From the sequence record OZ035734.1: a stretch of DNA of 44,234 nucleotides, one strand, 5' to 3'. Source of the DNA: Kagunavirus NRG857CP3. Below, in pieces: positions 3,324 to 37,918 of the stretch; within the stretch, counting starts at the first letter, position 1; the number at the start of each line of letters is the position of its first letter. The notes under the pieces are model-generated. The model saw only the letters and a program-made list of their open reading frames with translations, did not search any database and was not told the DNA's origin. A program made the translations under genes and the position numbers.

Positions 3324-3350
3324 TTTATGCCTCCTGTTTAATTTAACTGA

Positions 3351-3380
3351 ATAGTACCCTATTATATTGGTGTCTGCAAA
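3351..3380 (-). promoter_or_regulatory. sigma70-like promoter (TTGCAG-N17-TACTAT on minus strand) for moron 2802..3323
   Basis: Copy of conserved element CCAATATAATAGGGTACTATTC shared with promoters at 5237 and 14735. Confidence 0.5.
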
Positions 3381-4928: not shown

Positions 4929-4958
4929 ACTAAGGCCCCGAAAGGGGCCTTAGTTTCA
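4927..4958. terminator. bidirectional intrinsic terminator (AAACTAAGGCCCC-GAAA-GGGGCCTTAGTTT)
   Basis: Perfect palindrome, same family as 2774, 12279, 25044. Confidence 0.7.
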
Positions 4959-5207
4959 ATACCCAGTCTCTTGGGTTAAGTTAATCTCTTTATTCCAGAC
5001 GTTTCGGTCATACTTTTCACGAATCTGGCGCATACTTCTACCGAGCGCGGCGGATATAGACATATCCCCGTCTTCTTGCGCGTCCAGTTGCATCTGCTGA
5101 AGCTCAATATACGCCGAAATATCGCCGCGTAATTCGGCCTGTTCATACTCTTTTTTAAGAAAAGAACCAAGGTCCTGTACACGATGTTTTGCTGGTTTCG
5201 TAATCAT
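4956..5207 (-). CDS. hypothetical protein (moron)
   Basis: 83 aa minus-strand ORF with own promoter-leader and terminator; RBS GAGGAG. Confidence 0.5.
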   Translation of the reverse strand: MITKPAKHRVQDLGSFLKKEYEQAELRGDISAYIELQQMQLDAQEDGDMSISAALGRSMRQIREKYDRNVWNKEINLTQETGY

Positions 5208-5236
5208 TTCTTCTCTCCTCTTGTTGGTGTGAATGA

Positions 5237-5265
5237 ATAGTACCCTATTATATTGGGGTGTGCAA
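5237..5265 (-). promoter_or_regulatory. sigma70-like promoter (TTGCAC-N17-TACTAT, minus strand) with conserved leader ACACCAACAA
   Basis: Near-identical to elements at 3351 and 14735. Confidence 0.55.
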
Positions 5266-5287
5266 ACTATTTGTTTACGTATTCCAG

Positions 5288-5333
5288 TTATTCCACCGAA
5301 TTGTAAATGTTGGAATAAACTATTCGAATAGTT
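5288..5333. promoter_or_regulatory. inverted repeat TTATTCCA-N15-TGGAATAA followed by perfect 16-bp palindrome AACTATTCGAATAGTT overlapping the -35 box
   Basis: Read directly from sequence; half-site AATAG/CTATT shared with promoter-spacer palindromes elsewhere. Confidence 0.5.
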
Positions 5334-5360
5334 GACTTTTCACTAAAAATATGCTAAGCT
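5332..5360 (+). promoter_or_regulatory. sigma70 promoter TTGACT-N17-TAAGCT with extended -10 TG
   Basis: Paralogous to promoter at 36064 (identical -35, spacer pattern and -10). Confidence 0.6.
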
Positions 5361-5567
5361 CCACCTGAGCTTGTGAAGTATGAACAAGCGACCGCGGCGC
5401 GGGCAGGTAACGGAGCGGGACGTAAGTCCTGAGTGTAGTTACGCCGACGCGTTCGGAAGGGCCATACTATATTGCTTGTGTAAAAAGTAACTGGTTTACT
5501 GGGATTACGCCGTTTCTATGTTTAAATGATAAGGACTAGCGCCCCGCTTTATGGCGGGGCTTTACTT
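5361..5567 (+). ncRNA. candidate structured leader RNA / small RNA, copy 1
   Basis: About 105 nt core roughly 75 percent identical to copy at 36093; conserved hairpin GCTTGT..ACAAGC; ends at terminator 5538..5567. Confidence 0.35.
5538..5567 (+). terminator. intrinsic terminator (GCCCCGC-TTTATG-GCGGGGC + TTTACTT)
   Basis: GC stem plus U-rich tail just upstream of spanin gene. Confidence 0.55.
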
Positions 5568-7931: not shown

Positions 7932-7960
7932 GAGAGGGACTTCGGTCCCTCTTTTCATTT
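7932..7960 (+). terminator. intrinsic terminator (GAGAGGGAC-TTCG-GTCCCTC + TTTTCATTT)
   Basis: GC stem-loop with U tract right after capsid gene. Confidence 0.7.
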
Positions 7961-12278: not shown

Positions 12279-12308
12279 AACTAAGGCCCCAAACGGGGCC
12301 TTTTTCTT
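12279..12308. terminator. bidirectional intrinsic terminator (AACTAAGGCCCC-AAAC-GGGGCC-TTTTTCTT)
   Basis: Same palindromic family; between major tail gene (+) and island (-). Confidence 0.7.
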
Positions 12309-14703: not shown

Positions 14704-14734
14704 TTTAAAACCCCTTCATTGTTGGTGTAAGCGA

Positions 14735-14763
14735 ATAGTACGCTATTATATTGGGGTGCGCAA
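14735..14763 (-). promoter_or_regulatory. sigma70-like promoter (TTGCGC-N17-TACTAT, minus strand) with conserved leader ACACCAACAA driving the island
   Basis: Third copy of conserved promoter-leader element. Confidence 0.55.
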
Positions 14764-14870
14764 GTAGTGTGTTAGAATAATTTTGCGCCTAGTGTCGCAC
14801 ACGAAAAGCGGGTGGTTCCCGTCTGGCGCATTTCCTTTAACCAGTAACCTCTTAACCAAAGGATTAAAGA

Positions 14871-22757: not shown

Positions 22758-25043
22758 ATGTCAAGCGGATGCGGTGACGTTTTAAGCCTGGCGGATTTAC
22801 AGACCGCCAAGAAACACCAGATTTTCGAGGCTGAGGTTATCACTGGTAAATCTGGCGGTGTTGCTACGGGCGCTGATATCGATTACGCGACAAATCAGGT
22901 TACTGGACAGACCCAGAAGACGTTACCTGCCGTGTTGCGTGATGCTGGTTTTTCTCCTGTATCGTGGGATTTCTCCACTGGCGGTACGTTAACAGTTAAT
23001 GACCGCGACAAAGTGGTGTACGACCCCGTCAGTCAGACGTGGTATTCATACGCGGGTACGTTGCCGGTGGTAGTTCCCGCTGGTTTTAACCCAGTAGGGG
23101 CTGCTAACTGGAAACCTCAAAACTACATGGACCTGGAACAATCTCTGGCAGAGGATGATGGATTTAAATTAATCGGAAAATGCCCCGACGTATCAACCTT
23201 ACGTACTATTGAACCTGACGACAACAATCAGCGAATTTTTGTAGTAGCACACACCTCCGGGGTTCCTGTCGGGGACTCTGGCGACTCCGGCGGCGGGTGG
23301 TTTTACGCTGACTTAACAGACTCTGCATCTGGTGATGACAATGGGGTTGTTATAGTTACTAGCGGAGGAAAGCGCTGGAAGCGAGACCTATCGAAAGTCC
23401 GAGGAATTACCCCCAAAATGTTTGGCGCGTGGATGGATGCTCCGTATATTGACGGCACAACCATTCAGGGAACGCCTTACCCTAAAGCACCGAGCATGGG
23501 CGCCGCCGACTTGTCAGCCACCCATAACGATGGGTCAGCTATGTACTCTGCATATACAGCAAGTATTGCACACAATATTCCTTTATTAATTGAACAGCCA
23601 ATCTATATCGGCAGTACACAGATTGACATTAGCGCGTACAGATGGGATGGGGTAATGCTTAACATTATCGGTGATTCCCCCCGTAAAAGCATTATATACA
23701 CATCGACAACTGGTGGATTCGTAAGTACCTCGTGGGGGCATAACCTTTCTGTTGAAAACATTGCTTTCAGAAATGCTGACGCAGATTATGTTGGATGCCC
23801 GTTAATGGTAAGTGGGTCCGAATTATCCGGTGGTGGCGGTAAACTGTACACGATTCGTAATGTTGAGTTCTATCATTATAAATTCGCGCTGCCGTCGCTT
23901 ACTTTCGTCAGTACAATAGAAAATATCTATATGTACGATTGCAAGTACGGACTTGCTCTTAGCGGAAATACCAGCACCAACATTAATTCTGTGTGGGCGC
24001 ACCATTGCGACGATGGCTTTCTGTGGGGTTATTCCATAAACAGAAGCACGTACGAACCTGTGGCCGGGGGGTACCCTGTCATGTACGTAACCGCATCAAA
24101 TATCGCCGCCGATGGGTGCATCCGACCACATCGCGTAGGTGGTCAGTTACGGTCAGTAACCGTAGACGGCATGGGTATCGAAGGTATAAACGGCACTGTT
24201 GGTATTGATTTCTCAGACTACGCCGAAACAGACGACCAGTTTAAGTTCACCATTAAAGGTCTATCATGCTGGATTCAAAGTTCAATGAACACCGGTGTTA
24301 CTCGGTTCATCGAAATGCCGACAAGCGAAACAAGAATGCCGAACGGGAGTATTGTGCTAGACTCCGGTTATGTTAAGGCGGATTATCAAATTGCCTTAAT
24401 AAACAAAAATACGTCAGGAAACGTTGATGCTTACGGTAATTCTCTGGTTTTAGGTGATAATTTCAGATTCGTTAAAGTTACTGACACCTCAAGATTGGCA
24501 GATACCAGAATCCGAAGCGTCAGAGCAGGCGGTCGTGTGTACGGGCAAGGGCCTCTGGAGGGACGTAACTCCTACGACGGCGTGACTCTTTCATCAATAA
24601 ATGCGACGGCTGACGCCTACTTTAACGAAGTAAAAACCGAACAGGCAACATTTATACTCCCGTGGAACCGAGCGGTGGACATTCTGCTAACCACGGTCGG
24701 CGAAGAATCAAGATATGGTGCGTGTTTCCTTGCCGGGGAGATGTCAATAATTCCAGTAAACAAAAATGGACTTGGAGGTACAGAAGCCGGTGGGCGTGTG
24801 ATGTTTAGCATATCAGGGAGCAGCCAGGCCAACGTATCGTCCGGGGCTTTATGGAGTAACCTCGATGCGGGGGATAAAAGTCTGTCAGGATTTAACGTAC
24901 AGAAATTAGTTAATAACGGTCAGACGTTCATTCGTGTTAGTTGTCCGTCGGCGTCAATCTCAATGGCTATTGTGCACATGACTTTGACGTACAGCGGGTT
25001 CTCCCATTATTACGACCGAAGATGGCAGATAAGAACTATTTAA
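22758..25043 (+). CDS. tailspike / receptor-binding protein with predicted beta-helix (depolymerase-type) domain
   Basis: 761 aa, last structural gene, G/N/S/T/V-rich repeats typical of right-handed beta-helix; RBS AGAGGA. Confidence 0.55.
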   Translation: MSSGCGDVLSLADLQTAKKHQIFEAEVITGKSGGVATGADIDYATNQVTGQTQKTLPAVLRDAGFSPVSWDFSTGGTLTVNDRDKVVYDPVSQTWYSYAGTLPVVVPAGFNPVGAANWKPQNYMDLEQSLAEDDGFKLIGKCPDVSTLRTIEPDDNNQRIFVVAHTSGVPVGDSGDSGGGWFYADLTDSASGDDNGVVIVTSGGKRWKRDLSKVRGITPKMFGAWMDAPYIDGTTIQGTPYPKAPSMGAADLSATHNDGSAMYSAYTASIAHNIPLLIEQPIYIGSTQIDISAYRWDGVMLNIIGDSPRKSIIYTSTTGGFVSTSWGHNLSVENIAFRNADADYVGCPLMVSGSELSGGGGKLYTIRNVEFYHYKFALPSLTFVSTIENIYMYDCKYGLALSGNTSTNINSVWAHHCDDGFLWGYSINRSTYEPVAGGYPVMYVTASNIAADGCIRPHRVGGQLRSVTVDGMGIEGINGTVGIDFSDYAETDDQFKFTIKGLSCWIQSSMNTGVTRFIEMPTSETRMPNGSIVLDSGYVKADYQIALINKNTSGNVDAYGNSLVLGDNFRFVKVTDTSRLADTRIRSVRAGGRVYGQGPLEGRNSYDGVTLSSINATADAYFNEVKTEQATFILPWNRAVDILLTTVGEESRYGACFLAGEMSIIPVNKNGLGGTEAGGRVMFSISGSSQANVSSGALWSNLDAGDKSLSGFNVQKLVNNGQTFIRVSCPSASISMAIVHMTLTYSGFSHYYDRRWQIRTI

Positions 25044-25072
25044 AACTAAGGCCCCAAACGGGGCCTTTTATC
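25044..25072. terminator. bidirectional intrinsic terminator (AAACTAAGGCCCC-AAAC-GGGGCCTTTTATCT)
   Basis: Between convergent tailspike (+) and minus-strand replication operon. Confidence 0.7.
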
Positions 25073-25296
25073 TACTCTTCTGATAACTTTTCCAGTACAA
25101 ACGCCAGTTGCGCATTAGCGGCGTCTCTTTGCTGCCGTAGTCGTAGAACCTCTTCTTCAAGTTCCTTAACGCTCAAGGCAAGTTCAACTATCTCTGCGCT
25201 ACCCACAGTTTGGTACGCGCGCGGAGATATTTTCTTACCGCTTTCTAATACCTTAAAACCCAACGCGGCGATTTCACTAACACGACTGCTTCTCAT
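25072..25296 (-). CDS. hypothetical protein (coiled-coil)
   Basis: 74 aa, last gene of leftward operon. Confidence 0.4.
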   Translation of the reverse strand: MRSSRVSEIAALGFKVLESGKKISPRAYQTVGSAEIVELALSVKELEEEVLRLRQQRDAANAQLAFVLEKLSEE

Positions 25297-26723
25297 TTCT
25301 TACCTCGTCTCTTCATGTAATTAAGCAACTCTTCCTGGACGGATTTCTTCTCGTCCGTACGCGCGGCAACAACCTCGTCCAGCGTGTCTTTAGCGACGAT
25401 ATGATAGAGGAACACCGGGCGCTCGTGTCCAGCCTGTTTCTGGCGGACCGGGCCTATACGCTCGACAACCTGCAAATAGTGTTCAAGGTTCCAGCCTTGC
25501 GAGATGAACGCCAGATGATGGCCACCGTCCTGTAAATTCAAACCATGACCGGCTGACGCAGGGTGGACGCACAAAATCTCAATTTCACCACGGTTCCACG
25601 CTTCCATCTGCTTATTACCCTTAGCGCCTTTGGCAAACGCTTGTGCCTGCGGGAATCGCTTAAGGATGCGCTCCAGTTCGTGCTTAAACTGATAGGCTAC
25701 CAGTAACGGCGCACCCTGTAGTTCCTCAACAATGGACTCAAGCGCATCCAGTTTCGTGTCGTGCACTTTCTCCCAGTCTTTGGTTGCTTCGCCGTCTGGC
25801 CCTGACACATATACGGCGCCAGATGCAATCTGTAGGCACTTCGACGTCTTCGCCGCAGCGTTAGCCGCTTCGACTTCTCCGCTCTCCAGTTCCGCGAATA
25901 ACTTCTCCTCCATATCCATGTACGCCTGACGCGCTTTCTTCGGCAGGTCGATTTCAACCGGTACGATAATCGGCGCTTCGCATCCGAACCACTCGGCGGC
26001 GTCAATCGTGAGACTAATGTCCTTCATCTTCTGGTGAATTTCATTATCCGCGCCCGGGCGCGCATGATACTCACGCGCCATCGCCGATTTGCCTTTCTGC
26101 ACCGAGTTAAACCATCGGTCGGTGAATGCCGTGTACGACGACCCCAGGCGCTCGCCAGCGTCGATAAACCAGTTCTGGCCCCACAAGTCCTTGAGGCCGT
26201 TAGGCGATGGTGTGCCTGTCAGGTTAATGAAACGCTTAACCTTACCGAACGCCACCTTACTGAGCGCCTTTGCCCTTTTGCTACCGCCTGAACGGCTGCG
26301 GAACGATTTCAGCTTCGTGCTCTCATCGGCAACGATAACGGTAAAAGGCCAGTCGTCTTTGCCGTAGTAGTCAATCAGCCACTCGATAACTTCGTAGTTC
26401 GTGCACACCACGTTAGCATCCGACTCCAGCGCCGTGATGCGGCGCTTCTCTGAACCGGTCGCGTCAACAACACGCAGACACGGGAAGCCCCATTTCTCTT
26501 GTTCCGCGGGCCATGTACCGGATGCAACGCGCAACGGGGCGAGGATTAACACCCTGTCGTCATCATTAAGTTGGCCGTTGCGGAACAGTCGGTTGAGCAC
26601 CCACATCGTTGCGGAACTTTTGCCCGCACCCATCGAAGCCCAGATATTACAGCGCGGGTGTTGCAACATGAACGAAGTCATGAGCTTCTGGTACTCTCGG
26701 CGGATAAATTTAGACATACTCAA
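25293..26723 (-). CDS. SNF2-family ATP-dependent DNA helicase
   Basis: Walker A MGAGKS, IVADEST (DExx box), LTGTPSPN motif III. Confidence 0.8.
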   Translation of the reverse strand: MSMSKFIRREYQKLMTSFMLQHPRCNIWASMGAGKSSATMWVLNRLFRNGQLNDDDRVLILAPLRVASGTWPAEQEKWGFPCLRVVDATGSEKRRITALESDANVVCTNYEVIEWLIDYYGKDDWPFTVIVADESTKLKSFRSRSGGSKRAKALSKVAFGKVKRFINLTGTPSPNGLKDLWGQNWFIDAGERLGSSYTAFTDRWFNSVQKGKSAMAREYHARPGADNEIHQKMKDISLTIDAAEWFGCEAPIIVPVEIDLPKKARQAYMDMEEKLFAELESGEVEAANAAAKTSKCLQIASGAVYVSGPDGEATKDWEKVHDTKLDALESIVEELQGAPLLVAYQFKHELERILKRFPQAQAFAKGAKGNKQMEAWNRGEIEILCVHPASAGHGLNLQDGGHHLAFISQGWNLEHYLQVVERIGPVRQKQAGHERPVFLYHIVAKDTLDEVVAARTDEKKSVQEELLNYMKRRGKK

Positions 26724-26914
26724 TCCTTAACGTAGAGTACCAATTCCTTACGCCCGAACGCCGTAACGTTACCCGTTACGTCTTCAATTACCAGTTTACC
26801 GTTCGACTCGACGAACACCGTATCAACGGCAACAGGGCGACGGGTCTTAACGTTGAAAATCATGTCGCCAGGAACGATGTCACGTGCTGGTTTGCGGTCA
26901 TATTCGTGTTTCAT
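26720..26914 (-). CDS. hypothetical protein
   Basis: 64 aa, first gene after promoter 26948..26976. Confidence 0.4.
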   Translation of the reverse strand: MKHEYDRKPARDIVPGDMIFNVKTRRPVAVDTVFVESNGKLVIEDVTGNVTAFGRKELVLYVKD

Positions 26915-26944
26915 TTCTCAATTCCTTATATTGTTGGTGTGTGA

Positions 26945-27232
26945 CTAACTATAATAGTTCGCTATTAGGTCGTCAACCTGTTTAAACGAACCAACGACAA
27001 AAACATTCGCGCCGCGTTTACGCATCCGCGCATGCTCACGTAACTGGTGCGGGTCTGGCTTCGTGTTTTCGTCTTTCTTAACCTCAACGAACCAGACGAT
27101 GCCGCCGGGGAGAATTACCAGCAGGTCAGGAGCGCCCACTCTATTTTCGTAGGAAAGTTTACGAACGAGGCCCCCCAGGGCCTCGAATCGGTCTTTAGCG
27201 TATTTCTGCACACGCCCCTCAGGCGTACTCAT
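26945..27232 (-). CDS. VRR-NUC domain nuclease
   Basis: PD-(D/E)XK-type motif PDLLVIL...VEVKK. Confidence 0.7.
   Translation of the reverse strand: MSTPEGRVQKYAKDRFEALGGLVRKLSYENRVGAPDLLVILPGGIVWFVEVKKDENTKPDPHQLREHARMRKRGANVFVVGSFKQVDDLIANYYS
26948..26976 (-). promoter_or_regulatory. sigma70 promoter TTGACG-N17-TATAGT with spacer inverted repeat AATAG-CGAA-CTATT
   Basis: Consensus-like boxes read from minus strand; leader ACACCAACAA. Confidence 0.65.
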
Positions 27233-27317
27233 CTACGCACCCCTCACGTTTCGTATGCTCAACCCCGCAGCGCGGACAGATTAGGCAGTCTTCTTCGTAG
27301 AACCAGTAAATTTTCAT
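27219..27317 (-). CDS. small Cys-rich ORF (32 aa, CxxCxxC, possible zinc ribbon)
   Basis: Found by reading; overlaps VRR-NUC start; coordinates approximate. Confidence 0.2.
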   Translation of the reverse strand: MKIYWFYEEDCLICPRCGVEHTKREGCVDEYA

Positions 27318-27445
27318 TCAAGCACCCACAGATAAATCGCGATGAACATACCTAATACGGCGACCATCATGCCGTATTGGCCCTCGTGACAGTAGACACC
27401 GGCGGCAAACCCCGCCAGTACCGCAATACTCAGTTTACTTAGCAT
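27314..27445 (-). CDS. small hydrophobic ORF (43 aa, predicted membrane peptide)
   Basis: Found by reading; overlaps 3' end of polymerase gene; coordinates approximate. Confidence 0.2.
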   Translation of the reverse strand: MLSKLSIAVLAGFAAGVYCHEGQYGMMVAVLGMFIAIYLWVLE

Positions 27446-29687
27446 AACGCTTCATCTCCGCACCTTCCGCGACAAGAGGGAAGCCTTCTGCCCATTCCGG
27501 TAATTCGCACATCAATCGCCCCAGTTCAGCTACATTGTATTCCGGTAAATCCGGTGTCTCGCAGATAATTTCGTCATGTACGTGAAGCACAATCGGATAG
27601 CCGTTTGCTTCGACGTTCAGCAGCGCATTAGCCAGCAAATCACGGCACAGCGCCTGCGTGCAGTTTTCCACCAGTTTACCGGAGTAGGTGTACTGGAACC
27701 CCCACTGACGGGTTAACTGGTTTTCACCCTGGTACTTGATGCGCACGTTAGTTGACACCTTTCCATCTTCGTCTGTCTCTTTCGACACGCTTAACCCGAT
27801 GCCCGGGTAAGACATAACGCGACCCGACGGCAACGTCATGCGCAACCACCAACCAGCGACTTTGTTGCCGTTGTTGTCTGTCTCCACGTTACGCGAAAAC
27901 TTGACCCCCCGCGGCCCTGCAGTAAACTCTTTGCCAGGATTTCGGATAGCCGCCATTGCCGCGTCTTCAATATCCCGCCAGAAAGCTACGGTTTCCGGGT
28001 GGGACTCGCGCCACATACGCTTGATAGCGTCACAGGTACGCCACACTTTCTTATCAAGAATATACGAGGGTCTGTCATCCTTTTCGCCAGGACGTGGGGG
28101 GCGCTTAGCCTCCTGAATACGCGCCCACTCGTATCCGCGTGCGGTAGCAGCCCATATATGGTCAGGGAATGTCCCTTCCATTGTTTTTGCCATATCAACA
28201 AGGTTTAAGCCGAGGTTCTTAGCAAACTGAACGAAAGCACCGACACCGCCCGCGTAGCCGAGGCCCAATTCACAGGCTTTACCAATCTGGCGTAGGTCAC
28301 TACGGCTTTCGAGAATGTAATCAGGGTCCATGCCGAACATCTTACCCGCCGTTACGCAGTAAATATCCAATCCAGCACGGAAGGTATCCAGCGCGGTTTC
28401 TTCACCAGCAAGCCACGCAAGCCCACGGCCTTCGACGTTAGAGTAATCGGCGACGACAAACTTATGTCCGGATTCCGGTATGATGCAGCTACGCACCGTA
28501 GATGCCGTTAGTTTGGCTACATCAAAACGGCGATGTGCACGGCCTTTAAACAACAGGTCGATTCCGTAGGACAATGGGTGTGTTACTCGCCACCAGTCCT
28601 TCTCTGACATCCAGTCATAACGTACTTTCTTCTTTTTATTCTTCGGGTCGTCGTGATAGTACCCGCGCGCGAGGTTCTGCGGCTGGAAGCCTTTACCAGC
28701 AAATCGTAACGTACGCTTAGCTCCACCGTACTGGATGCAACCACGACGGCGGTCGTCAGACGAGCGGCCCAACAGCAGCGGGTTATATTTCGTTGACGCC
28801 GTGGACGCGGCCCCGAGGCGCATTTCGATAATCGTGCGGGCATCGTCAGGTAAATCATCGTCCGCCAACAAGTCATTCAGCGTTGACTTCTGTGCGTTGT
28901 GGATCCGGTGCGCAGGCGCAAGTTCACGCAGAATAGGCAGGAAATCTTTACCAGTAAGCGACCCGCCGTATTTGCGCTGGGCTTCCTCCTGTAACTGTGC
29001 CTTGTGCTTCTCCACGGCTTCAATCGCGGCTTCCGCCAGCGCGACGTCAACCTTAAACCCACGGTCGTTGATTAACTGGTCCAGTTCCAGTACGCGGTCC
29101 TCGAACTCGGAGTTACCCCAACGCGGTAGCTTATGGAATACTTCTCGCATCGCAGTGATGTCGCTCACGGCGTACTTGATAAACAAAGCCCACTCGTCTG
29201 GGTGTGTTTCGGCGGTGTAACGGCGGATTTTGTAGTTCTTCGGTGTCGGTTTAGAGAAACGCTTAATCAGTGCCTTGCCGCGTTTATCTTTCGCGTTGTC
29301 GGCGGATACGCCAAACACTTCGCACAATGCGTCAAGTGAACCCGGCAGCGCGTGACGAAACGCCCAAATCATCGTATCAATGGTGTTGCTTACAGGAATA
29401 TCAAAGCCCCAGCAATGTTTCATGATGAGACGATCGAACATTGAGCCGTTGTGCCACACCATCTTGATGCGACTGTTCGGTTTCACCAGACGGCGTAACG
29501 CGCGGTGCAAATCTCCCGGCATGTCGCTGCCGTCGGTGCAATCCCATACCTGTACAGGCTCGTCGTCAAAGGCATATGTGCAGATAAGCACTTCGGTTGA
29601 CGGGTGTTCGGCGTAAGCATAGGAACCGACTTTCTTTAAATCGATGTCGCTGTAGGTTTCAAAGTCTAAGAAGAGTAATTCTGGCAT
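27435..29687 (-). CDS. DNA polymerase I family (family A) with N-terminal 3'-5' exonuclease domain
   Basis: Exo I motif LFLDFETYS at N-terminus; 750 aa; C-terminal HVHDEI-type block. Confidence 0.85.
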   Translation of the reverse strand: MPELLFLDFETYSDIDLKKVGSYAYAEHPSTEVLICTYAFDDEPVQVWDCTDGSDMPGDLHRALRRLVKPNSRIKMVWHNGSMFDRLIMKHCWGFDIPVSNTIDTMIWAFRHALPGSLDALCEVFGVSADNAKDKRGKALIKRFSKPTPKNYKIRRYTAETHPDEWALFIKYAVSDITAMREVFHKLPRWGNSEFEDRVLELDQLINDRGFKVDVALAEAAIEAVEKHKAQLQEEAQRKYGGSLTGKDFLPILRELAPAHRIHNAQKSTLNDLLADDDLPDDARTIIEMRLGAASTASTKYNPLLLGRSSDDRRRGCIQYGGAKRTLRFAGKGFQPQNLARGYYHDDPKNKKKKVRYDWMSEKDWWRVTHPLSYGIDLLFKGRAHRRFDVAKLTASTVRSCIIPESGHKFVVADYSNVEGRGLAWLAGEETALDTFRAGLDIYCVTAGKMFGMDPDYILESRSDLRQIGKACELGLGYAGGVGAFVQFAKNLGLNLVDMAKTMEGTFPDHIWAATARGYEWARIQEAKRPPRPGEKDDRPSYILDKKVWRTCDAIKRMWRESHPETVAFWRDIEDAAMAAIRNPGKEFTAGPRGVKFSRNVETDNNGNKVAGWWLRMTLPSGRVMSYPGIGLSVSKETDEDGKVSTNVRIKYQGENQLTRQWGFQYTYSGKLVENCTQALCRDLLANALLNVEANGYPIVLHVHDEIICETPDLPEYNVAELGRLMCELPEWAEGFPLVAEGAEMKRYAK

Positions 29688-29703
29688 ATTATTTTCGACC
29701 CTT

Positions 29704-29732
29704 AGTAAAAAGGCCCAATGAAGGGCCTTAGT
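29704..29732 (-). terminator. intrinsic terminator on minus strand (AAGGCCC-TTCATTG-GGCCTTTTT)
   Basis: Stem-loop plus U tract downstream of SSB-like gene, upstream of polymerase start. Confidence 0.55.
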
Positions 29733-29748
29733 TAAATTGATTCAGATA

Positions 29749-30375
29749 TTAGCGGCGGCGACGTTCGCGGCGCGGTGCTTCATCTTCTTCGTCGTCTTCA
29801 AGGTCGTCGACACTTGCCGCGACGTTAGAACCGCCAAACGCTTTACCTTCGCCGACGTATTTAATCGCCAGCAGGTTAACACCGAGGACTTTGTATTTCT
29901 GGCTGAACCAGATTTCAACGCTTACGTTAGCGACGCAGCCGCTGTAAACCTGTTCACCTTCAATCTGTTCGCCGTCTACATTGAAGTCCTGCTCTACCTG
30001 AGTCTCACCTTTTTTAGAGGTTACAATCAGTGGCTGTTTCTGTGCCTTAGCCTTGAAGTAGAAGCCTTCCGGGAAGTCTTCAAACGGATTGTCGCGCTCT
30101 GCGATATCTTTAATTGCACATTTATCCATGTGCTTACCTTCGCCGTAGTTAGACTTCATCCACTTCTCGGCAGCAGCGGCTCCTAACGCTTCTTCAACTA
30201 CCGCGTAAACAGTGTCGTAGAGCGCATCGATTTGAGCATGGTCAGACGGCAGGATAATAGTTGCGCTGTACTGGCCTTTAGTGATTGAGCCATCATCGTT
30301 TTCACGGTCTTTTTCGCGTTCAAATACGTTAACCCATGCAGTGTTTACTTTACGCAGATTTAATTTCAGTCCCAT
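29749..30375 (-). CDS. putative ssDNA-binding protein (DUF2815-like), acidic C-terminal tail
   Basis: Acidic C-terminus DDLEDDEEDE then basic RRERRRR; paired with Cas4-like nuclease upstream (recalled family association). Confidence 0.4.
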   Translation of the reverse strand: MGLKLNLRKVNTAWVNVFEREKDRENDDGSITKGQYSATIILPSDHAQIDALYDTVYAVVEEALGAAAAEKWMKSNYGEGKHMDKCAIKDIAERDNPFEDFPEGFYFKAKAQKQPLIVTSKKGETQVEQDFNVDGEQIEGEQVYSGCVANVSVEIWFSQKYKVLGVNLLAIKYVGEGKAFGGSNVAASVDDLEDDEEDEAPRRERRRR

Positions 30376-30429
30376 CTTGATTTCTCGCTTTTCAGTTTAC
30401 TCCGGGAAGCTGCCCGGCCAGTGATTAGA

Positions 30430-30458
30430 ACTATAATAGTTAACTATTCAGGTGTCAA
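30430..30458 (-). promoter_or_regulatory. sigma70 promoter TTGACA-N17-TATAGT with perfect spacer palindrome AATAGTTAACTATT
   Basis: Consensus -35, near-consensus -10, 17-bp spacer. Confidence 0.7.
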
Positions 30459-30462
30459 CACT

Positions 30463-31719
30463 TTATTCCAGATCTTCTTCACTAACCTGATTCCACTCAG
30501 GACGTTTGTCGTCTGCCGTTGCGACACATGGCGCTCCGGGCTTACGAGTGATGAAGTCTTTCAGCTCTTCTTCCGGCACAACTTTAACAGCTTCGGTTGG
30601 CGTCATGAGCACTTCTTTAGTTAGCTTGTCGCCGTAGAGTTCTGCCACTTTCCCCGCGTCTTTCCACGCACGGTTGCCCATCTTACCTTCGACCAGCTTA
30701 TACCCCGGCACTTTCTTGCCAGAATGCAACGCGGCGGACATCGCTTTTTCAACCTTGTCAATGTGCTGGCGTAACAACGGCAGCTTCTCATACTCGGCGA
30801 CGAGTTGCCCTGGTGTCAGTTCCAGCGCAAAGTCGTCCTCCAGTTCCTCTGCCAGTACAGAATTAACCGTCTTCGTTCTGGCAGCGCACTGTTCTGAGAA
30901 CCTACACCACTGACAGCCATCGACCGACGGCTTAAAGTCTGACGCTTTCAGGTTCTTCTTACCACGGAAGTACGCGTCGAGTGCTAACAGTGCACGTTTC
31001 TGTGCGAACTTAGCGAACAGTTCCAGGCCTTCAACCGAGATGTCCCACTCCGACGCACCACCAGCGTACGGCTGGAAGATGACCAGACGAACAGTTGTTA
31101 TGTTATAACGTCTCTTGAGTCGGCGATAAACACCGAGAGCATAAAGCATAAGCTGCTTGTTTTCTTTCGCTTCGACACGATGCCGTCCGGTTTTCAGGTC
31201 GCCGATGATAAGCATGTGCTCGTCAGTGTTCGCCATCTCCTGAACGGCAACAAGGTCGGCGGTTCCGAACGTCTCAACGCCTTCATGACCCGGATGCAAT
31301 ACCTCAGTAAGATTGACACGCATCTCGAGCTTGGCATAAGTCGCAACGTCTATAATCGCTTTGCAGTAGTCGGTGTACTTGCGCACCTGCTCAATCATGT
31401 CCGCCGTAATCAGTACCGCGCCTTTCATCGGACTGATTAGTGCCTTAATCTGGCCTTTACCCTCATCCAGCACGTAAGCGCCGACTTCACGCTCTAACGG
31501 CAGCGCAGTACCTTTGATGTACTGGTTAAGGTGCATCTCAGCTATCGTGTGCATAGCTGTGCCTAATACCGCAGCTTTACCGGACGTGTTGGGAATATCT
31601 TTTTCACAGGCCAGTGACGCAGCACAGCTAAGCCACTTTTTAGCACCTGACGGTGACAGCAGGGCGTGCACATCGTTATTGCCGCCGCGTTCCTTTAAAA
31701 TCATACCCTGTTCTCCCAC
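30463..31719 (-). CDS. PD-(D/E)XK exonuclease, Cas4/RecB-like (DUF2800-like) with C-terminal Cys cluster
   Basis: C-terminal CQWCRFSEQC plus upstream Cys; nuclease-type motifs. Confidence 0.6.
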   Translation of the reverse strand: MGEQGMILKERGGNNDVHALLSPSGAKKWLSCAASLACEKDIPNTSGKAAVLGTAMHTIAEMHLNQYIKGTALPLEREVGAYVLDEGKGQIKALISPMKGAVLITADMIEQVRKYTDYCKAIIDVATYAKLEMRVNLTEVLHPGHEGVETFGTADLVAVQEMANTDEHMLIIGDLKTGRHRVEAKENKQLMLYALGVYRRLKRRYNITTVRLVIFQPYAGGASEWDISVEGLELFAKFAQKRALLALDAYFRGKKNLKASDFKPSVDGCQWCRFSEQCAARTKTVNSVLAEELEDDFALELTPGQLVAEYEKLPLLRQHIDKVEKAMSAALHSGKKVPGYKLVEGKMGNRAWKDAGKVAELYGDKLTKEVLMTPTEAVKVVPEEELKDFITRKPGAPCVATADDKRPEWNQVSEEDLE

Positions 31720-31973
31720 TGGTCAATCATATGTCGTGTCTTATGTTCGCAGTGCATAGCCCAGCCATACATCGACTCGAAGACATAAAAGTCAGGTTTG
31801 GCGAATGTAGTGCGCTTAATCTGCGACACGTGACGGCCCATATCTTTAGGCTGTGGTACTTTGCCTAAATAGGCCGTCTCTTCCATCTGGTGCGCACCGG
31901 ACGGCGCACGCAATAGCCATAGCGCCTCCGTGTTATCCCTCCGGTCGACGGCGCGGTAGAGTTGGTAAATCAT
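31701..31973 (-). CDS. hypothetical protein
   Basis: 90 aa ORF overlapping exonuclease start. Confidence 0.4.
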   Translation of the reverse strand: MIYQLYRAVDRRDNTEALWLLRAPSGAHQMEETAYLGKVPQPKDMGRHVSQIKRTTFAKPDFYVFESMYGWAMHCEHKTRHMIDQWENRV

Positions 31974-31987
31974 ATTTCCGACCCTCA

Positions 31988-32010
31988 GTTAAAGCGGCCC
32001 GAAGGCCGCG
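31988..32010 (-). terminator. stem-loop GCGGCC-CGAA-GGCCGC (weak terminator / attenuator)
   Basis: GC hairpin with short U run on minus strand. Confidence 0.3.
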
Positions 32011-32016
32011 AGATAG

Positions 32017-32514
32017 TTATTCTTCTTCGAAATACTTGTTCTTGATTGCCGTCAGGCGTTCCAGGTATTCAACAAGGTCTTCGTCTTTAATCGCGGCAAT
32101 CTTCATCTTCTTACCGGTGAACTCTTCCAGCAGTTCATCAGAATCGTCGCACGCGGCATCGCTCGGGCCTTCGTTAATCGCATCGTCGATAGCCTGAATC
32201 TGGTCACGCAGAGACTGGTAATCAATCATCTCGTCTACCTGCTCTGGTGTTACGGTTTCCTCTACTTTAGGTTTACGCGGCTTGCGTTTTGGCTTCTCTT
32301 CTTCTGCCGGTTTAGTGTCAACGATGCCTTCACCTTCGACCGGGATTTCTTTTGTTTTCTCGATTGTTGCGGTTTCTGCAACACCACTGTCGACGTCTTT
32401 ACCATATGGCGCAGTGATAGCCTTCGGCAGTTCAGTACGGCGTGCGCTGTTCGCAGCAATCAGTTCGTGTGCAACTACGAAACGTTCCAGTAATACTAAG
32501 AATTTCTCTAACAT
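32017..32514 (-). CDS. acidic hypothetical protein, first gene of leftward early operon
   Basis: About 24 percent D+E, acidic C-terminal half; directly downstream of consensus promoter. Confidence 0.5.
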   Translation of the reverse strand: MLEKFLVLLERFVVAHELIAANSARRTELPKAITAPYGKDVDSGVAETATIEKTKEIPVEGEGIVDTKPAEEEKPKRKPRKPKVEETVTPEQVDEMIDYQSLRDQIQAIDDAINEGPSDAACDDSDELLEEFTGKKMKIAAIKDEDLVEYLERLTAIKNKYFEEE

Positions 32515-32535
32515 TTGTTTCTCTCCTCTCGTTTG

Positions 32536-32564
32536 GTATGGGCTAACTATAATAGCGAACTATT
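32536..32564 (-). promoter_or_regulatory. sigma70 promoter TTGACA-N17-TATAGT with spacer inverted repeat AATAG-TTCG-CTATT
   Basis: Consensus boxes; leader AAACGAGAGGAGAGA. Confidence 0.7.
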
Positions 32565-32590
32565 CACATGTCAATGGGCTTTTCTAAAAT

Positions 32591-32620
32591 AATTAATATG
32601 GTACTATTCACATATCAACT
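32591..32620 (-). promoter_or_regulatory. second copy of TTGATATGTGAATAGTAC element (weak tandem promoter or operator repeat)
   Basis: Direct repeat of ACTATTCACAT(G/A)TCAA about 50 bp from first copy; -10 poor. Confidence 0.3.
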
Positions 32621-32638
32621 GACTAAGGAGTAATTGAC

Positions 32639-32854
32639 ATGCAACCATCTGAACTAGGCATCCGTGTAGAACAACGCCGTAAAGAACTCGGCATCTCCCA
32701 GCGCCGTCTGGCTGTCCTGACCGGAGTTTCCCAGGGCGCAATTAACCAGCTGGCACTCGGCGTAACTCAGGACGTCCGCCCGGCAACGCTGTTTAAACTG
32801 GCGGAAGTGCTGGAAGTAGACGCCAAGTGGCTGGCGTTTGGTGAAGGGGCTTAA
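32639..32854 (+). CDS. XRE-family helix-turn-helix transcriptional regulator (Cro/CI-like)
   Basis: HTH signature ISQRRLAVLTGVSQGAINQL; RBS AAGGAG. Confidence 0.8.
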   Translation: MQPSELGIRVEQRRKELGISQRRLAVLTGVSQGAINQLALGVTQDVRPATLFKLAEVLEVDAKWLAFGEGA

Positions 32855-32870
32855 TGCCCCTTTCTTTTTA
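32845..32870 (+). terminator. intrinsic terminator (AGGGGC-TTAAT-GCCCCT + TTTCTTTTT)
   Basis: Stem-loop and U tract overlapping the stop of the XRE gene. Confidence 0.6.
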
Positions 32871-33182
32871 TTGCAACTTATCAAGTTCTTCCAAATTCTT
32901 AATCGTGTGTTGCACATTCAGGTACTGAATCCAGGCAAAAAGCCATACGCTCACCGGAAAACTAACCACGGCAGCCGTTCTGAAAACAATGTGGATAGTG
33001 CACGCTATAATCTCCTTTACCGTCATATTCAGAACGTGGCGCAATTCTGCAACTTCCTCTAACGCTAGCTTGCAAGCAGGCCACCATTGGTTTGCTACGC
33101 AGGAAACGCATGTCAGGTATGTCGGGCGGTACCCCGACCTCACTGCTTTAAACGGGTTATCTATAAAATCGTAAATATTCAT
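32868..33182 (-). CDS. hypothetical protein (hydrophobic C-terminus)
   Basis: 104 aa ORF overlapping primase-helicase stop. Confidence 0.4.
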   Translation of the reverse strand: MNIYDFIDNPFKAVRSGYRPTYLTCVSCVANQWWPACKLALEEVAELRHVLNMTVKEIIACTIHIVFRTAAVVSFPVSVWLFAWIQYLNVQHTIKNLEELDKLQ

Positions 33183-35443
33183 TCCAAATCCTCCTCTGTC
33201 ACTGTCAACATTTCATTCGGTTCGTATATTGTCTTCGGAATCTTGTTATCCGTTATTCGGGTGTTCAGCCTGTAACGGCCAGGGATTATCTGATTGTTTT
33301 CGTCAGTCCCCGGAACAAGATACCCCGCCTCAACCATTTTCTTAATCTTCCCGCGTTCTATGGCTTCTTTGGAGTTGAACGCCTTTGCGTTGGGGTCGGA
33401 CTGTGCCAGCTTATTCGCTGCGGCTACCGTGATGCCTTCGTTGCCGTTGTAGGTTCCTTCCGCCAGCTCAAACGCTGCCAGTATCGTGGCTTCCGAATTG
33501 TTGACGGCGTTCTCTACGGTTTTACGTACGTTTTCTTTACCTTCCTTTGTCAGCCCTTCTTCCCGCTCTTTCTCCTCGTCGGTCTTGAACGGCTCGAAGC
33601 CCCACGGCATCAACACAAGCGCCTTGTGCGGTTCAGGCAGGTCGAGGTTAACGATTGTGCCATACTCCTCTGTGCTACCCAGGAACTCAACCGCGCGGTA
33701 CTCTTTCGGCGGCGGGGCTTCACGAAACTGTACCGACTCCAGCACCATACCAATCGTTTTCTGTTGCGGCCCGTGCTTAAATTTAGTGTGTGACACGTTA
33801 ATCTGGCGGTCGGTTGCACGCTCGATTGTCAGCTCCACATCGACACCCGCATACAATGCACCGCTGCCACGGGCTTTCTTTCCACCTTTCGGTGTGTGAT
33901 GGACTACACCAACGGCGGCTTTAGTCGCGTCGCGAACTTCTTTCAGGATGGCGATAACCTTACCCATACCGATTGCCGTTGATGAACTGTTCTCGTCGAA
34001 CTTATCGATGGTCAGGGCCAGCGTCTGGTTAAGGGTGTCAAATGCGACCATACCGATTGGATCATCGCCCGCGGTTTCGCGCATTAACTTAATCAGGCTT
34101 TTCAGTTTGCCGACTTCACCCATATCGATAAGGTGGATGTAGTTCTTTCCTTCCTCGCCGTATTTAGCCGCGAGTGCGTCGATACGTGTGCGTGTAGCCG
34201 CACCGCCTTCACCGTCGATATAAAAGTGATGGCAGCGCTGTGTATCAGCGCCCGCAAACCGATATCCGGCAGCGCTCAGGTACATCATGCCCAGGGTGTA
34301 GAAAGACTTATACGTGCCGGACTCTCCGACAATATCCCATATACAATCTGACGGCATGTAGCCTTCGACGACGAAATCGGCCTTTACAGGTTCCGGTAAC
34401 TCGTCTTCCTCAGAGTCGTCATCCTCCAGGTCGTCGAGGCTACATTCGACCGTCTCACGCGCACCCCAGCCGATGGCCTCAGCAACTTCACTGAACGGCA
34501 GCCCGGTCGCTTCGCAGGCGTATTTCCACACCTCTTTCGGCGACATGCCCTCTGTTGCCGTCAGGTCGGTGTCGTGAATCATGGTTACGTTAGGTGCGGC
34601 GTACCCCTCGCGCGGGAAGCACAGCAGGAAATCATCCGGGCGCGGTGTCGGGTCGCTGTAGTTCTCAGCGTGCTCAGGCGTCGCGGGCATCTTCAGACCG
34701 CGTGGCGTAATGACACCACCATACTCAAACGCCAGTGCTTCGAACGCGTCCGTAAACGCTGTGCGCAGTTCTTCCGGTATCTGGTAGTCGGATGCGCTGC
34801 TTACCTCGTAATCCGGGACTCCTTCCAGCAGACGGTCTGGGTCAATCAGGTCATTGCGGCGTGACCAGACGACCTCAGAGTTAACTGGTGGCAGGTACAT
34901 CGGCTGGGACAGGGTAAACCCGCTGCGGTCAGCACCCATGCCTTTAAAGAAATGCTCCAGCAGCCCGTGACGAACGCGGATGATATCACCGCCTTCTACC
35001 GGGCGCGCCAGCGGCATAACGACACGGAAACGCGGTGATTCGTCGGTGTGCGATGCCGTGGTGTACAGGCACATCGCTACACGGCTACGTTTAACCAGCC
35101 GCACGGCTTCCTGATACTCTTCGGGCGTCGCGCTGTCGAAATCCAGATAAGCCAGCGACGATTTGCTTACGGACGCATCACAGCGGTAGAAGAAGCCCCG
35201 GCGCGCCTGTTTAAACTCGCCTGTTTCCGGGTCTTTCACAGTGCTATGTGTTGAATCGCACGCAGCGGTAATGTAACCAGGCGCGGTCTTTGGGTTAACC
35301 CCGTCACGAACGGCGTCAAGTGGCTGGATTAACTCTTTCAGGTCGTCCAGTGTTGCCGTGTGGGTGGTTCTGACGTTTATATCCTTTTTCTCCGCCCGCG
35401 CGTTGCGACGGGACCACGAATAGGATAAAATTACATCGGACAT
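33179..35443 (-). CDS. primase-polymerase / RecA-like helicase fusion (replicative primase-helicase)
   Basis: 754 aa; central P-loop block GESGTYKS and RecA-like helicase motifs. Confidence 0.6.
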   Translation of the reverse strand: MSDVILSYSWSRRNARAEKKDINVRTTHTATLDDLKELIQPLDAVRDGVNPKTAPGYITAACDSTHSTVKDPETGEFKQARRGFFYRCDASVSKSSLAYLDFDSATPEEYQEAVRLVKRSRVAMCLYTTASHTDESPRFRVVMPLARPVEGGDIIRVRHGLLEHFFKGMGADRSGFTLSQPMYLPPVNSEVVWSRRNDLIDPDRLLEGVPDYEVSSASDYQIPEELRTAFTDAFEALAFEYGGVITPRGLKMPATPEHAENYSDPTPRPDDFLLCFPREGYAAPNVTMIHDTDLTATEGMSPKEVWKYACEATGLPFSEVAEAIGWGARETVECSLDDLEDDDSEEDELPEPVKADFVVEGYMPSDCIWDIVGESGTYKSFYTLGMMYLSAAGYRFAGADTQRCHHFYIDGEGGAATRTRIDALAAKYGEEGKNYIHLIDMGEVGKLKSLIKLMRETAGDDPIGMVAFDTLNQTLALTIDKFDENSSSTAIGMGKVIAILKEVRDATKAAVGVVHHTPKGGKKARGSGALYAGVDVELTIERATDRQINVSHTKFKHGPQQKTIGMVLESVQFREAPPPKEYRAVEFLGSTEEYGTIVNLDLPEPHKALVLMPWGFEPFKTDEEKEREEGLTKEGKENVRKTVENAVNNSEATILAAFELAEGTYNGNEGITVAAANKLAQSDPNAKAFNSKEAIERGKIKKMVEAGYLVPGTDENNQIIPGRYRLNTRITDNKIPKTIYEPNEMLTVTEEDLE

Positions 35444-35500
35444 GTGTATATTCCTTCAGAAAGTAATTTGGCCTCGGCGTTCTAGCGTCGGGGCTTTCTT

Positions 35501-35791
35501 TTAACGTTTAGCCAGACATTCCATTAAATGTGAATATTTTCTGTAATAGCAAGGAACTAAATCACACCCAAAATAATGATAAACATAAGCCAAGTGGTCG
35601 GTAACATCTATAGCGGCCGACATTGTGTTAAGACGGCGAAGGCTAATCAACCGTAATTCTTCCGTAATGCAAAATGGTTCATACGTATCAAGTTTGCAAG
35701 AAACGTTAAAACACAGAGCATAGCCGTCTTGTGCGGAGTAGACCAGAAATGCGCTGTCGTTCTCTTTATCGTGAAAAATTACACCTTTCAT
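35501..35791 (-). CDS. hypothetical protein
   Basis: 96 aa, RBS AAGGAGA. Confidence 0.4.
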   Translation of the reverse strand: MKGVIFHDKENDSAFLVYSAQDGYALCFNVSCKLDTYEPFCITEELRLISLRRLNTMSAAIDVTDHLAYVYHYFGCDLVPCYYRKYSHLMECLAKR

Positions 35792-35958
35792 TTCACATTC
35801 TCCTTAACCCACGCTTCTACTTTATTTCGGTCAAACGTACCCGGCATACGGCGGCCCATTACTTTAACGCTGCAATCAGGAAACTTCCCGCTTTTAATCC
35901 AGTTATTTATTGTCTGGCGAGTAACTCCGATTAATTCTGCTACTTCATTTATAGTCAT
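35788..35958 (-). CDS. small HTH DNA-binding protein (AlpA/excisionase-like fold)
   Basis: MTINEVAELIGVTRQTINNWIKSGKFP; start set at ATG after AGGAGA RBS (ORF track 36048). Confidence 0.5.
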   Translation of the reverse strand: MTINEVAELIGVTRQTINNWIKSGKFPDCSVKVMGRRMPGTFDRNKVEAWVKENVK

Positions 35959-35987: not shown

Positions 35988-36016
35988 AGTATAAAGCGGT
36001 AACTTTGTAAAAGCAA
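35988..36016 (-). promoter_or_regulatory. sigma70 promoter TTGCTT-N17-TATACT (minus strand) for HTH/primase operon
   Basis: Read from reverse complement; divergent partner of promoter at 36064. Confidence 0.5.
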
Positions 36017-36063: not shown

Positions 36064-36092
36064 TTGACTTTTACTTAAAAATATGCTAAGCT
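36064..36092 (+). promoter_or_regulatory. sigma70 promoter TTGACT-N17-TAAGCT with extended -10 TG (paralog of 5332)
   Basis: Near-identical to promoter at 5332..5360. Confidence 0.6.
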
Positions 36093-36335
36093 TCACTGAG
36101 CTTGTGAGATATCGCAAGCGACCGCGGAGCGGCAGGGAACGCAACGCGTGCCATTAGGCACTTGAGTGTAGTTCCGCTGGCGCTTTCGGAAAGGCCAAAG
36201 TCTATTGTTAATCCCGCCTAAATACCCAAGTCACTGATAATTAAAAGTTTCTATAGTTGCCGTAAGCAAGGTAGAGAGTACTTCACTCCGCTGGGGTGGG
36301 CTAACGCCCACCCACTGCGTTGCGTACTCTTTTAA
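36093..36335 (+). ncRNA. candidate structured leader RNA / small RNA, copy 2
   Basis: Core about 75 percent identical to copy 1 with conserved blocks CTGAGCTTGTGA, CAAGCGACCGCGG, TGAGTGTAGTT, TTCGGAA, GGCCA; followed by GC hairpin GGGGTGGGC-TAAC-GCCCACCC. Confidence 0.35.
36291..36335 (+). terminator. GC hairpin with distal U tract (weak terminator)
   Basis: Stem GGGGTGGGC/GCCCACCC; T run 16 nt downstream. Confidence 0.3.
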
Positions 36336-36371: not shown

Positions 36372-36400
36372 TTGCACACCCCAACATAATAGTATACTAT
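36372..36400 (+). promoter_or_regulatory. sigma70-like promoter TTGCAC-N17-TACTAT with spacer palindrome AATAGTATACTATT
   Basis: Same architecture as minus-strand morons' promoters; leader AAACGAGACAGAGGAG. Confidence 0.55.
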
Positions 36401-36434
36401 TCACTTATCGAAACGAGACAGAGGAGTGAGGGTT

Positions 36435-36620
36435 ATGTTTAAGAAGGGTCAGTTGGTGAAAACTAAGCGCAACGGTGTCGGGGTAATTAGGCGAGTTTCA
36501 CAGAAGGTAAAAGGTCGATATCTTCTTAGTAACCCGGAATGGGCTTTTGATATGTATTTCCGGGAGCCCGAAATAGTAGAACTCATCGGCAACAATTTTA
36601 AATTCAAAGGGGCGAAGTGA
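36435..36620 (+). CDS. hypothetical protein
   Basis: Start at ATG after AGGAG RBS (ORF track GTG 36426). Confidence 0.4.
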   Translation: MFKKGQLVKTKRNGVGVIRRVSQKVKGRYLLSNPEWAFDMYFREPEIVELIGNNFKFKGAK

Positions 36621-37465: not shown

Positions 37466-37500
37466 TGAGTGACTTACGCTGCTACACAGCAGCGTATCAT
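37466..37500 (+). terminator. intrinsic terminator (ACGCTGCT-ACAC-AGCAGCGT + TATCATTTTTCTCATTTTT)
   Basis: Perfect 8-bp stem and U-rich tail. Confidence 0.65.
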
Positions 37501-37858: not shown

Positions 37859-37887
37859 TTGCACACTAAGATAGAATAGGCTACTAT
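37859..37887 (+). promoter_or_regulatory. sigma70-like promoter TTGCAC-N17-TACTAT with spacer repeat AATAG-GCTA-CTATT
   Basis: Leader ACAAACGAGAGGAGAGA precedes ATG. Confidence 0.55.
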
Positions 37888-37918
37888 TCATTTACACAAA
37901 CGAGAGGAGAGACCGAAG

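Follow-up and report, generated by a model that had tools for sequence, protein, structure and literature searches.

A structured RNA coupled to its own promoter, present in two copies in Kagunavirus NRG857CP3 and found in the Guernseyvirinae

The sequence discussed here (OZ035734.1, from Kagunavirus NRG857CP3; the 44,234 nt are referred to as the window) has at 36064-36335 a unit comprising a promoter, a folded RNA and a hairpin, and a related unit at 5332-5565. From the alignment of homologues we conclude that the RNA is a real, selected structure of the + strand coupled to one promoter, and that the element is a new, previously unannotated RNA family that is restricted to the Guernseyvirinae. 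We suggest, tentatively, a role in antitermination, to be weighed below against other possibilities. We refer to the unit at 5332-5565 as copy 1 and to that at 36064-36335 as copy 2.

The window is a complete or near-complete genome of a Kagunavirus (Guernseyvirinae). Around the element it aligns at 83-90% identity with some 200 records of phages of E. coli and Salmonella. Its genes are arranged in two arms that point away from each other from about 36 kb. The replication genes are on the leftward arm (25293-35958, - strand), the last of them being for helicase-primase and a 56-aa HTH protein, of the HTH_17 / MerR-like kind, that lies beside the divergent region. The rightward arm begins at about 36.06 kb with small accessory genes and has copy 2 at its very start; holins, endolysin and terminase follow, as judged by the annotation of relatives, and the arm then wraps to the start of the sequence with the portal, head and tail genes. 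The parts of the divergent region and of the copy 2 unit are as follows.

35988..36016, - strand: promoter-like site TTGCTT-N17-TATACT for the HTH / helicase-primase arm, a consensus match read from the sequence
36064..36092, + strand: copy-2 promoter, with -35 TTGACT (36064-36069), a 17-nt spacer ending in TGc and extended -10 TGcTAAGCT (36084-36092; hexamer TAAGCT 36087-36092), 93% identical to the copy-1 promoter
36098-36100, + strand: predicted transcription start, placed by its distance to the -10
36098..36119, + strand: P1, the 5'-terminal hairpin, given with the start included; 36100-36106 pairs with 36113-36119 in the minimum-free-energy fold
36122..36189, + strand: P2, a long imperfect helix, from covariance model match (R1), covariation and fold z-score
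Base of P2: CCG/CGG, bulged C36125, tandem G-U pairs (36126-36127 with 36185-36186) and covarying pair A36128-U36184
Internal loop of P2: GCAACGC (36141-36147) opposite UUGAGUGUA (36162-36170), with the mid stem (36136-36140/36171-36175) below and the apical hairpin at 36148-36161
36190..36207, + strand: single-stranded tail AAAGGCCAAAGUCUAUUG, kept in all five types of the element
36208..36273, + strand: site-specific 3' module, common to phages that have no core at that site, such as K1H
36274..36335, + strand: composite terminator-like hairpin and U run, with outer stem 36274-36281 paired with 36324-36331 and inner GC hairpin 36293-36313
36372..36401, + strand: separate regulated promoter TTGCAC (36372-36377)-N17-TACTAT (36395-36400) for the gene at 36435-36620
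36388-36401, + strand: operator palindrome AATAGTATACTATT over the regulated promoter, of a family with 14 matches where 1.06 are expected
36435-36620, + strand: first rightward gene, with a basic 61-aa product (MFKKGQLVKTKRNG...)

The layout given in the preliminary description, with divergent transcription from a leftward promoter at 35988..36016 (which reads 36016-35988), a TTGACT-N17-TAAGCT promoter with TG extension in both copies, and a GC hairpin (the inner hairpin at 36293-36313) followed by a separate promoter at 36372-36400, is borne out throughout. The copy-2 promoter is absent from the output of a simple sigma-70 scan because TAAGCT shares only 3 of 6 bases with TATAAT; we call it a promoter because its -35 matches at 5 of 6 positions, it has the TG extension and it is conserved in every homologue. 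The composite hairpin (36274-36331), which has UUUU directly 3' of it, was missed by a simple terminator scan because its loop and stem are beyond the limits of that scan. The 61-aa product of the first rightward gene occurs in K1H, SETP3 and Bas71 and was undetected in the three more distant phages without the RNA element, few genomes being compared. It was modelled as a small SH3/Tudor-like beta-barrel (pLDDT 71), the best PDB match being at only E=0.09.

Copy 1 has the same general plan.

5332..5360, + strand: copy-1 promoter, TTGACT (5332-5337)-N17-TGcTAAGCT, with TAAGCT at 5355-5360
5364..5475, + strand: copy-1 core, with P1 (5369-5374 with 5384-5389), P2 (5392-5456) and then the tail; R1 132.8 bits, E=1e-35
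5541..5560, + strand: leader hairpin, a terminator-like site in the terminator scan, 25 nt before the start codon (5585) of the Rz spanin gene

The gene after copy 1 was identified as Rz by PHROG. The copy-1 promoter is the sole promoter-like site before the spanin, scaffold and capsid genes, with none other up to the Rz start, and therefore the mRNA of the head operon carries the leader and must pass the hairpin at 5541-5560, for which a compensatory change is seen in the homologue L001. There is a strong intrinsic-terminator-like hairpin with a UUCG loop right after the major capsid gene (7932-7953, + strand), and downstream of it are about ten structural genes without a good promoter, so that either this terminator allows partial read-through or antitermination is required. 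A terminator-like site is also found 3' of the operon of copy 2 (37475-37496). The U tracts after the hairpins of the element are short, of 3-4 nt in the two copies (UUUAC in type 1 and UUUU after copy 2), and the Jerseyvirus type has UUAGC.

Upstream of the copy-1 promoter, at 5279-5332, there is a cluster of TATTC/GAATA half-sites, in which a GAATA-N3-TATTC ends 6 nt before the -35, with identical spacing in SETP3 (L054, about 925-975). These half-sites are missing at the copy-2 promoter. An 83-aa minus-strand ORF lies immediately upstream of copy 1.

The two copies were thought to be about 75 percent identical in the core and to lie about 31 kb apart in front of different operons. Copy 1 is indeed 30,732 nt upstream, and in global alignment the two promoters are 93% identical, the cores (5361-5475 against 36093-36208) 75.6% and the 3' parts 48%; for shuffled cores the mean was 51% and the maximum 58%. 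A repeat finder pairs 36064-36096 with 5332-5364 (88%) and 36163-36207 with 5430-5474 (82%). Similarity limited to the promoter had been named beforehand as the outcome that would tell against a functional element, and it is not what is seen, as the similarity extends through the core of about 112 nt, where the differences between the copies are largely compensatory.

Homologues were recovered by pattern scans of viral contigs and phage records and fall into five types. Type 1 is copy 1 of the Kagunaviruses and is also in some Salmonella phages, type 2 is copy 2 at 36064-36335 of the present genome, type 3 is found in Jerseyviruses such as SETP3, and types 4 and 5 are mostly at the copy-2 site. 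Cores of types 1 and 2 were found at 221 places in 180 phage records, and therefore about 41 records have two copies; the Jerseyvirus type is in a further 269 records, with one copy each. In about 450 phage records copy 1 precedes the spanin/head operon, and in every case it has on one side the terminator at which the terminase-to-decoration block ends and on the other the genes for the Rz/Rz1 spanin, the scaffold and the major capsid protein. Within the subfamily copy 1 is universal, whereas copy 2 is an optional addition. Promoter and core are always found together, and a stable hairpin and then co-oriented genes always follow.

The core consists of the 5'-terminal hairpin P1, the long imperfect helix P2, which is an interrupted duplex of about 21 bp, and a conserved tail. 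The minimum-free-energy fold of copy 2 (z = -3.57) has P1 at 36100-36119, P2 at 36122-36189 with a small hairpin as cap, and the tail single-stranded, and single-sequence folds of types 2, 4 and 5 have the same architecture. Covariance model R1 was built from 22 sequences and used to realign 26 members of the five types (alignment A3). In A3, which being fitted to R1 is biased in favour of the fold, standard pairs occupy 94.9% of the cells against 28-44% with the partners slid by 1-3 columns, double-sided changes are seen in 10 of the 27 pairs against 1-3 in the slid controls, and none of 500 column shuffles reached the observed values. Alignment and joint folding of the copies had been proposed as a check for covariation, and when MAFFT and RNAalifold were run independently of R1, P1 came out again together with the basal half of P2, and 3 pairs covaried.

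The pairs of P1 are 100% kept in A3, and one basal pair of P2 varies between C-G (11 rows), U-A (9 rows) and A-U (4 rows), while the mid stem and apical hairpin are rebuilt with different sequence in every type. The two adjacent G-U pairs beside the bulged C do not vary. As an RNA of the opposite strand would have C-A mismatches in their place, the fold is on the + strand, which is the strand transcribed from the promoter. The conserved unpaired parts are an internal loop of about GNAGCG opposite AGYGUA and the tail AAGGGCC...CUAUUG. The apical loops vary by type (GUAA, AUUA, CACA, CUCG, GUYA). In all types P1 starts within a few nt of the predicted transcription start. The common fold, the compensatory changes and the strand-specific G-U pairs support the earlier proposal that the copies are functional paralogues of a structured leader or small RNA, and not a chance repeat.

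Other structural readings were tried and set aside. A pseudoknot between the P1 loop and the tail is unconserved across types. A riboswitch-like attenuator, in which the apical stem would pair with the terminator region, was rejected as the same 3' region follows cores with different apical stems; a 9-nt match between 36139-36147 and 36317-36325 is limited to type 2. Readings of the loops as K-turn, boxA or RfaH ops were inspected by eye and dropped.

We define the family as having P1, P2 with the bulged C and tandem G-U, the loop GNAGCG / AGYGUA and the tail AAGGGCC, placed directly 3' of a TTGACT/TAGACT-N17-TGnTAMGCT promoter. Both copies belong to it, with an R1 score of 95.3 bits (E=7e-25) for copy 2 and that given above for copy 1. 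An Rfam 15 gathering scan of the whole genome gave int-alpA at 14782-14846 only, with the element unmatched, and when copy 2, copy 1 and the copy of SETP3 were scanned against Rfam by E-value, all matches were at chance level (E>0.09) and none was on the core. R1 had no match in TO17, Serratia Smarc3 or Klebsiella Kp4887-1, there was no similarity in 5,426 E. coli genomes, and the matches from a pattern scan of sampled bacterial genomes were no more than chance ones in GC-rich genomes, none of which was confirmed by R1. A metagenome scan returned only types already known, and our literature search found no paper on this RNA element.

In Smarc3 there is a long hairpin upstream of the spanin gene (L056, 1078-1150) that has an 11-nt identity (ACGCCCTAGCG) with the Jerseyvirus element. 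This leader gave no R1 match even with filters off and its fold is unremarkable (z = -0.88), and it is either a very remote relative or a chance likeness.

The type 5 core is at the copy-1 site in L063 and at the copy-2 site in L068, L072 and L076, each with the 3' sequence of the site it occupies, and therefore cores move between sites by recombination. Swapping of cores while the 3' parts stay with the site argues for a self-contained domain as against a switch that pairs with local 3' sequence. K1H carries copy 1 only. Its copy-2 site is taken up by another strong promoter (TTGACA-N16-TAAAAT) with unrelated non-coding sequence of about 190 nt (L081, 34870-35095), after which the 3' module, the hairpin and the regulated promoter of the copy 2 unit are found again. 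The 3' module (36208-36273) is present in 31 phage records and the K1H cassette in 9. SETP3 (L202, 9520-9850) and Bas71 (L203, 7860-8150) have at this site other hairpin-rich non-coding stretches behind strong promoters. The cassettes of K1H, SETP3 and Bas71 are of 190-300 nt, with promoters of constitutive type, and precede the regulated promoter of the first rightward gene. On this comparison of sequences the copy-2 site seems to be host to interchangeable non-coding cassettes.

With regard to the regulated promoters, there is in the window a sigma-70-like family (TTGCAC or TTGACR, N17, TAyTAT) in which a palindrome AATAG-N4-CTATT overlaps the -10. The palindrome sites are at 3350-3363, 5236-5249, 14734-14747, 26953-26966, 30435-30448, 32551-32564, 36388-36401 and 37875-37888, the 14 matches against 1.06 expected being with one mismatch allowed. 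The sites have the look of operators for a single phage regulator of early/middle promoters, with members on both strands. As their half-site recurs in the cluster upstream of copy 1, one regulator might repress the operator promoters and activate the copy-1 promoter. Near-identical bidirectional terminator hairpins (AAACTAAGGCCCC...GGGGCCTTAGTTT) are found at module boundaries (2770-2806, 4924-4956, 12274-12306, 25039-25074, 29703-29733). Two minus-strand ORFs within the plus-strand structural region (2802-3323 and 4956-5207) each have their own operator-type promoter and are missing in K1H, TO17 and Smarc3, and they are probably morons.

As to function, the reading that we prefer among several, and put forward tentatively as a possibility well short of an established role, is that the element may be a cis-acting, promoter-coupled leader that lets RNA polymerase read through downstream terminators, similar in action to put and nut but not homologous to them. 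The suggestion is made because the arrangement of promoter, structured RNA and hairpin recurs at the heads of rightward operons, as in processive antitermination of lambdoid phages. Host sigma-70 RNA polymerase would start at the strong extended -10 promoter, with the element as the first ~110 nt of the transcript, and the folded domain would act in cis on the polymerase that made it, either alone as for HK022 put or as the loading site for a phage or host factor as for lambda nut. The polymerase would then continue past the hairpin terminator right after the element and past later terminators of the rightward arm. The operon served would be spanin/scaffold/capsid for copy 1, and for copy 2 it would be the start of the rightward arm, with its accessory genes, lysis genes and terminase.

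Several observations tell against antitermination. Because the U tracts are short, the hairpins may terminate only weakly and require no help; copy 2 has the independent promoter at 36372-36400 after it, so that the downstream genes are not reliant on copy 2; and K1H has the same hairpin without the core. These observations speak for two of the alternatives below, a small RNA acting in trans and a leader acting on the mRNA. Family searches recognised no antiterminator protein among the neighbouring small proteins.

At the head of the third rightward operon, for the tail, there is likewise a structured leader that is promoter-proximal and terminator-like. It is the int-alpA match at 14782-14846 (+ strand), which precedes the gene for the tail-assembly chaperone. 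The match is marginal (36.6 bits against a gathering score of 35.8), and an extended -10 promoter lies about 7 nt before its start; its fold has a closing stem, two inner hairpins and a U-rich tail, and resembles a promoter-proximal terminator. The sequence is also in K1H (L081, 13078-13140), where it is just under the Rfam gathering score.

A stronger form of the suggestion is that the element would be a second, structurally unrelated class of RNA that alone makes host polymerase resistant to terminators, and the first found in siphoviruses that are virulent and non-lambdoid; promoter and RNA would form a portable cassette, which the phages duplicate and exchange between operons. We consider this distinctly improbable.

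An alternative, which we regard as doubtful but worth serious attention, is that the unit gives a small RNA, stable and trans-acting and about 200-240 nt long from promoter to hairpin, whose conserved loops would capture a protein of host or phage and sequester or redirect it, perhaps as a decoy, or pair with host mRNA; copy 2 would then be an extra copy of the gene, expressed early. It would account for copy 2 being self-contained, with promoter, RNA, very stable hairpin with UUUU and a separate promoter for the next gene, and for the unrelated non-coding cassettes at the same site in relatives, as expected of accessory RNA genes. Hairpins at the 5' terminus and 3' end are typical of stable RNAs, and conservation over the type-1 unit as a whole exceeds that of the coding sequence beside it. 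However, complementarity to phage transcripts is limited to scattered 9-12-mers with nothing extended, the E. coli genomes referred to above show no similarity, and U tails of 3-4 nt are short for an Hfq-type RNA, which is expected to have a long U tail and a seed to its targets. Both copies are moreover always directly upstream of co-oriented genes, and copy 1 bears the only promoter of an essential operon and hence must be at least also a leader.

The element could also be a module of the 5' UTR that acts on the mRNA, by protection from RNase E or Rho or as a processing site of RNase III type, for high output of structural proteins, although we think this unlikely. The position of P1 at the extreme 5' end and the interrupted duplex of P2 are as it would predict, and copy 1 precedes the scaffold and major capsid genes, whose products are needed in the largest amounts; the RNase III sites of T7 are likewise multi-copy related hairpins with internal loops. 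However the invariant nucleotides of loop and tail, and the tandem G-U with bulged C, are unneeded for simple protection, and the element is more than 100 nt from the ribosome-binding site with another hairpin between.

It is very improbable that the transcript serves DNA replication, as primer or activator at an origin within the divergent control region. The minimum of cumulative GC skew is at about 35-36 kb, where copy 2 adjoins the helicase-primase gene, but the skew tracks gene orientation and is inseparable from it, the universal copy 1 is in the structural region, and most relatives have no core at the control region. A chance repeat or small protein-coding gene is scarcely credible: some database records carry a hypothetical protein annotation over copy 1, and type 1 has a 38-codon ORF that starts in the P1 loop, but there is no start codon for it in types 2 and 3, it is truncated or frameshifted in types 4 and 5 so that no ORF over the element is conserved across the five types, and the identity far above that of shuffles and the covariation behind the RNA fold refute both.

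The Guernseyvirinae (the Jersey-like phages of Salmonella and the K1-type phages of E. coli) are widely used in therapy and biocontrol, and the element is a strongly conserved non-coding RNA that heads the operon for their most abundant virion proteins. Should it modify polymerase, it would become the second entry in the very short list of antiterminators that consist of RNA alone, and synthetic biology would gain a compact part; should it prove to be a small RNA that binds protein, it would point to a new route of host takeover. Either way it deserves a curated RNA family and corrected annotation, particularly as some records mis-annotate it as a hypothetical protein.

Among known systems the put RNAs of HK022 offer the first comparison. 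They suppress terminators in a factor-independent way through the zinc-binding domain of beta'. putL and putR are two related RNAs just after the promoters of different operons, each with two stem-loops with bulges, and putL, which begins at +3, has a -10-like hexamer within it (PMC9378689). The present element is similar in having two related copies, each just 3' of the sigma-70 promoter of a separate operon with terminators downstream, and, as for putL, in beginning within a few nt of the transcription start, and also in having two stem-loops with bulges. In contrast, R1 finds nothing in the full HK022 genome (L077, E<=10), the element is of about 112 nt with one short and one very long helix while put is of about 73 nt, and its phages are virulent siphoviruses whereas HK022 is lambdoid. 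With nutL and nutR it shares the pairing of RNA sites near two operon starts, cis-acting in nut and presumptively so here, and the order of a hairpin and then a conserved single-stranded stretch. It differs in having no boxA, the tail having CUAUUG where boxA has GCUCUUA, and the apical loop is unconserved and therefore there is no recognition loop like that of boxB; nor was an N-like protein recognised among the neighbouring small proteins.

The lambdoid PR'/tR' region (6S / StxS) is alike in having a strong promoter and a non-coding transcript of about 200 nt that ends in a hairpin, followed by lysis (Rz) and head genes, and in having a hexamer resembling a -10 at about -1 to +6 (PMC9371919). 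The repeats of this kind in the element are TAAGCT-N5-TGAGCT in type 1, the same with N4 in type 2, and TACGCT-N3-TACGCT in type 3, and such a hexamer after the -10 could cause a sigma-dependent pause as at promoters controlled by Q or AlpA. However the repeated hexamer TGAGCT of types 1 and 2 is without the key A at position 2, the spacing is 3-5 nt, and the same bases form the stem of P1. Q and AlpA use DNA sites and need no RNA fold, and no antiterminator like either was found among the neighbouring proteins, the adjacent HTH protein of 56 aa being far smaller than the eight-helix AlpA of P. aeruginosa. The RNase III sites of the T7 early region, which are interrupted hairpins with conserved internal loops, lie between genes, whereas the element is at the 5' end directly after a promoter. 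The int-alpA RNA (RF02996) of the tail operon start is again a promoter-proximal structured leader in the same genome, but is unrelated to the element in sequence and fold. Judged by homology, by size and shape, and by the lack of a boxA or conserved apical loop, the element does not belong to the put or nut families, and it is best filed as a promoter-proximal phage leader RNA.
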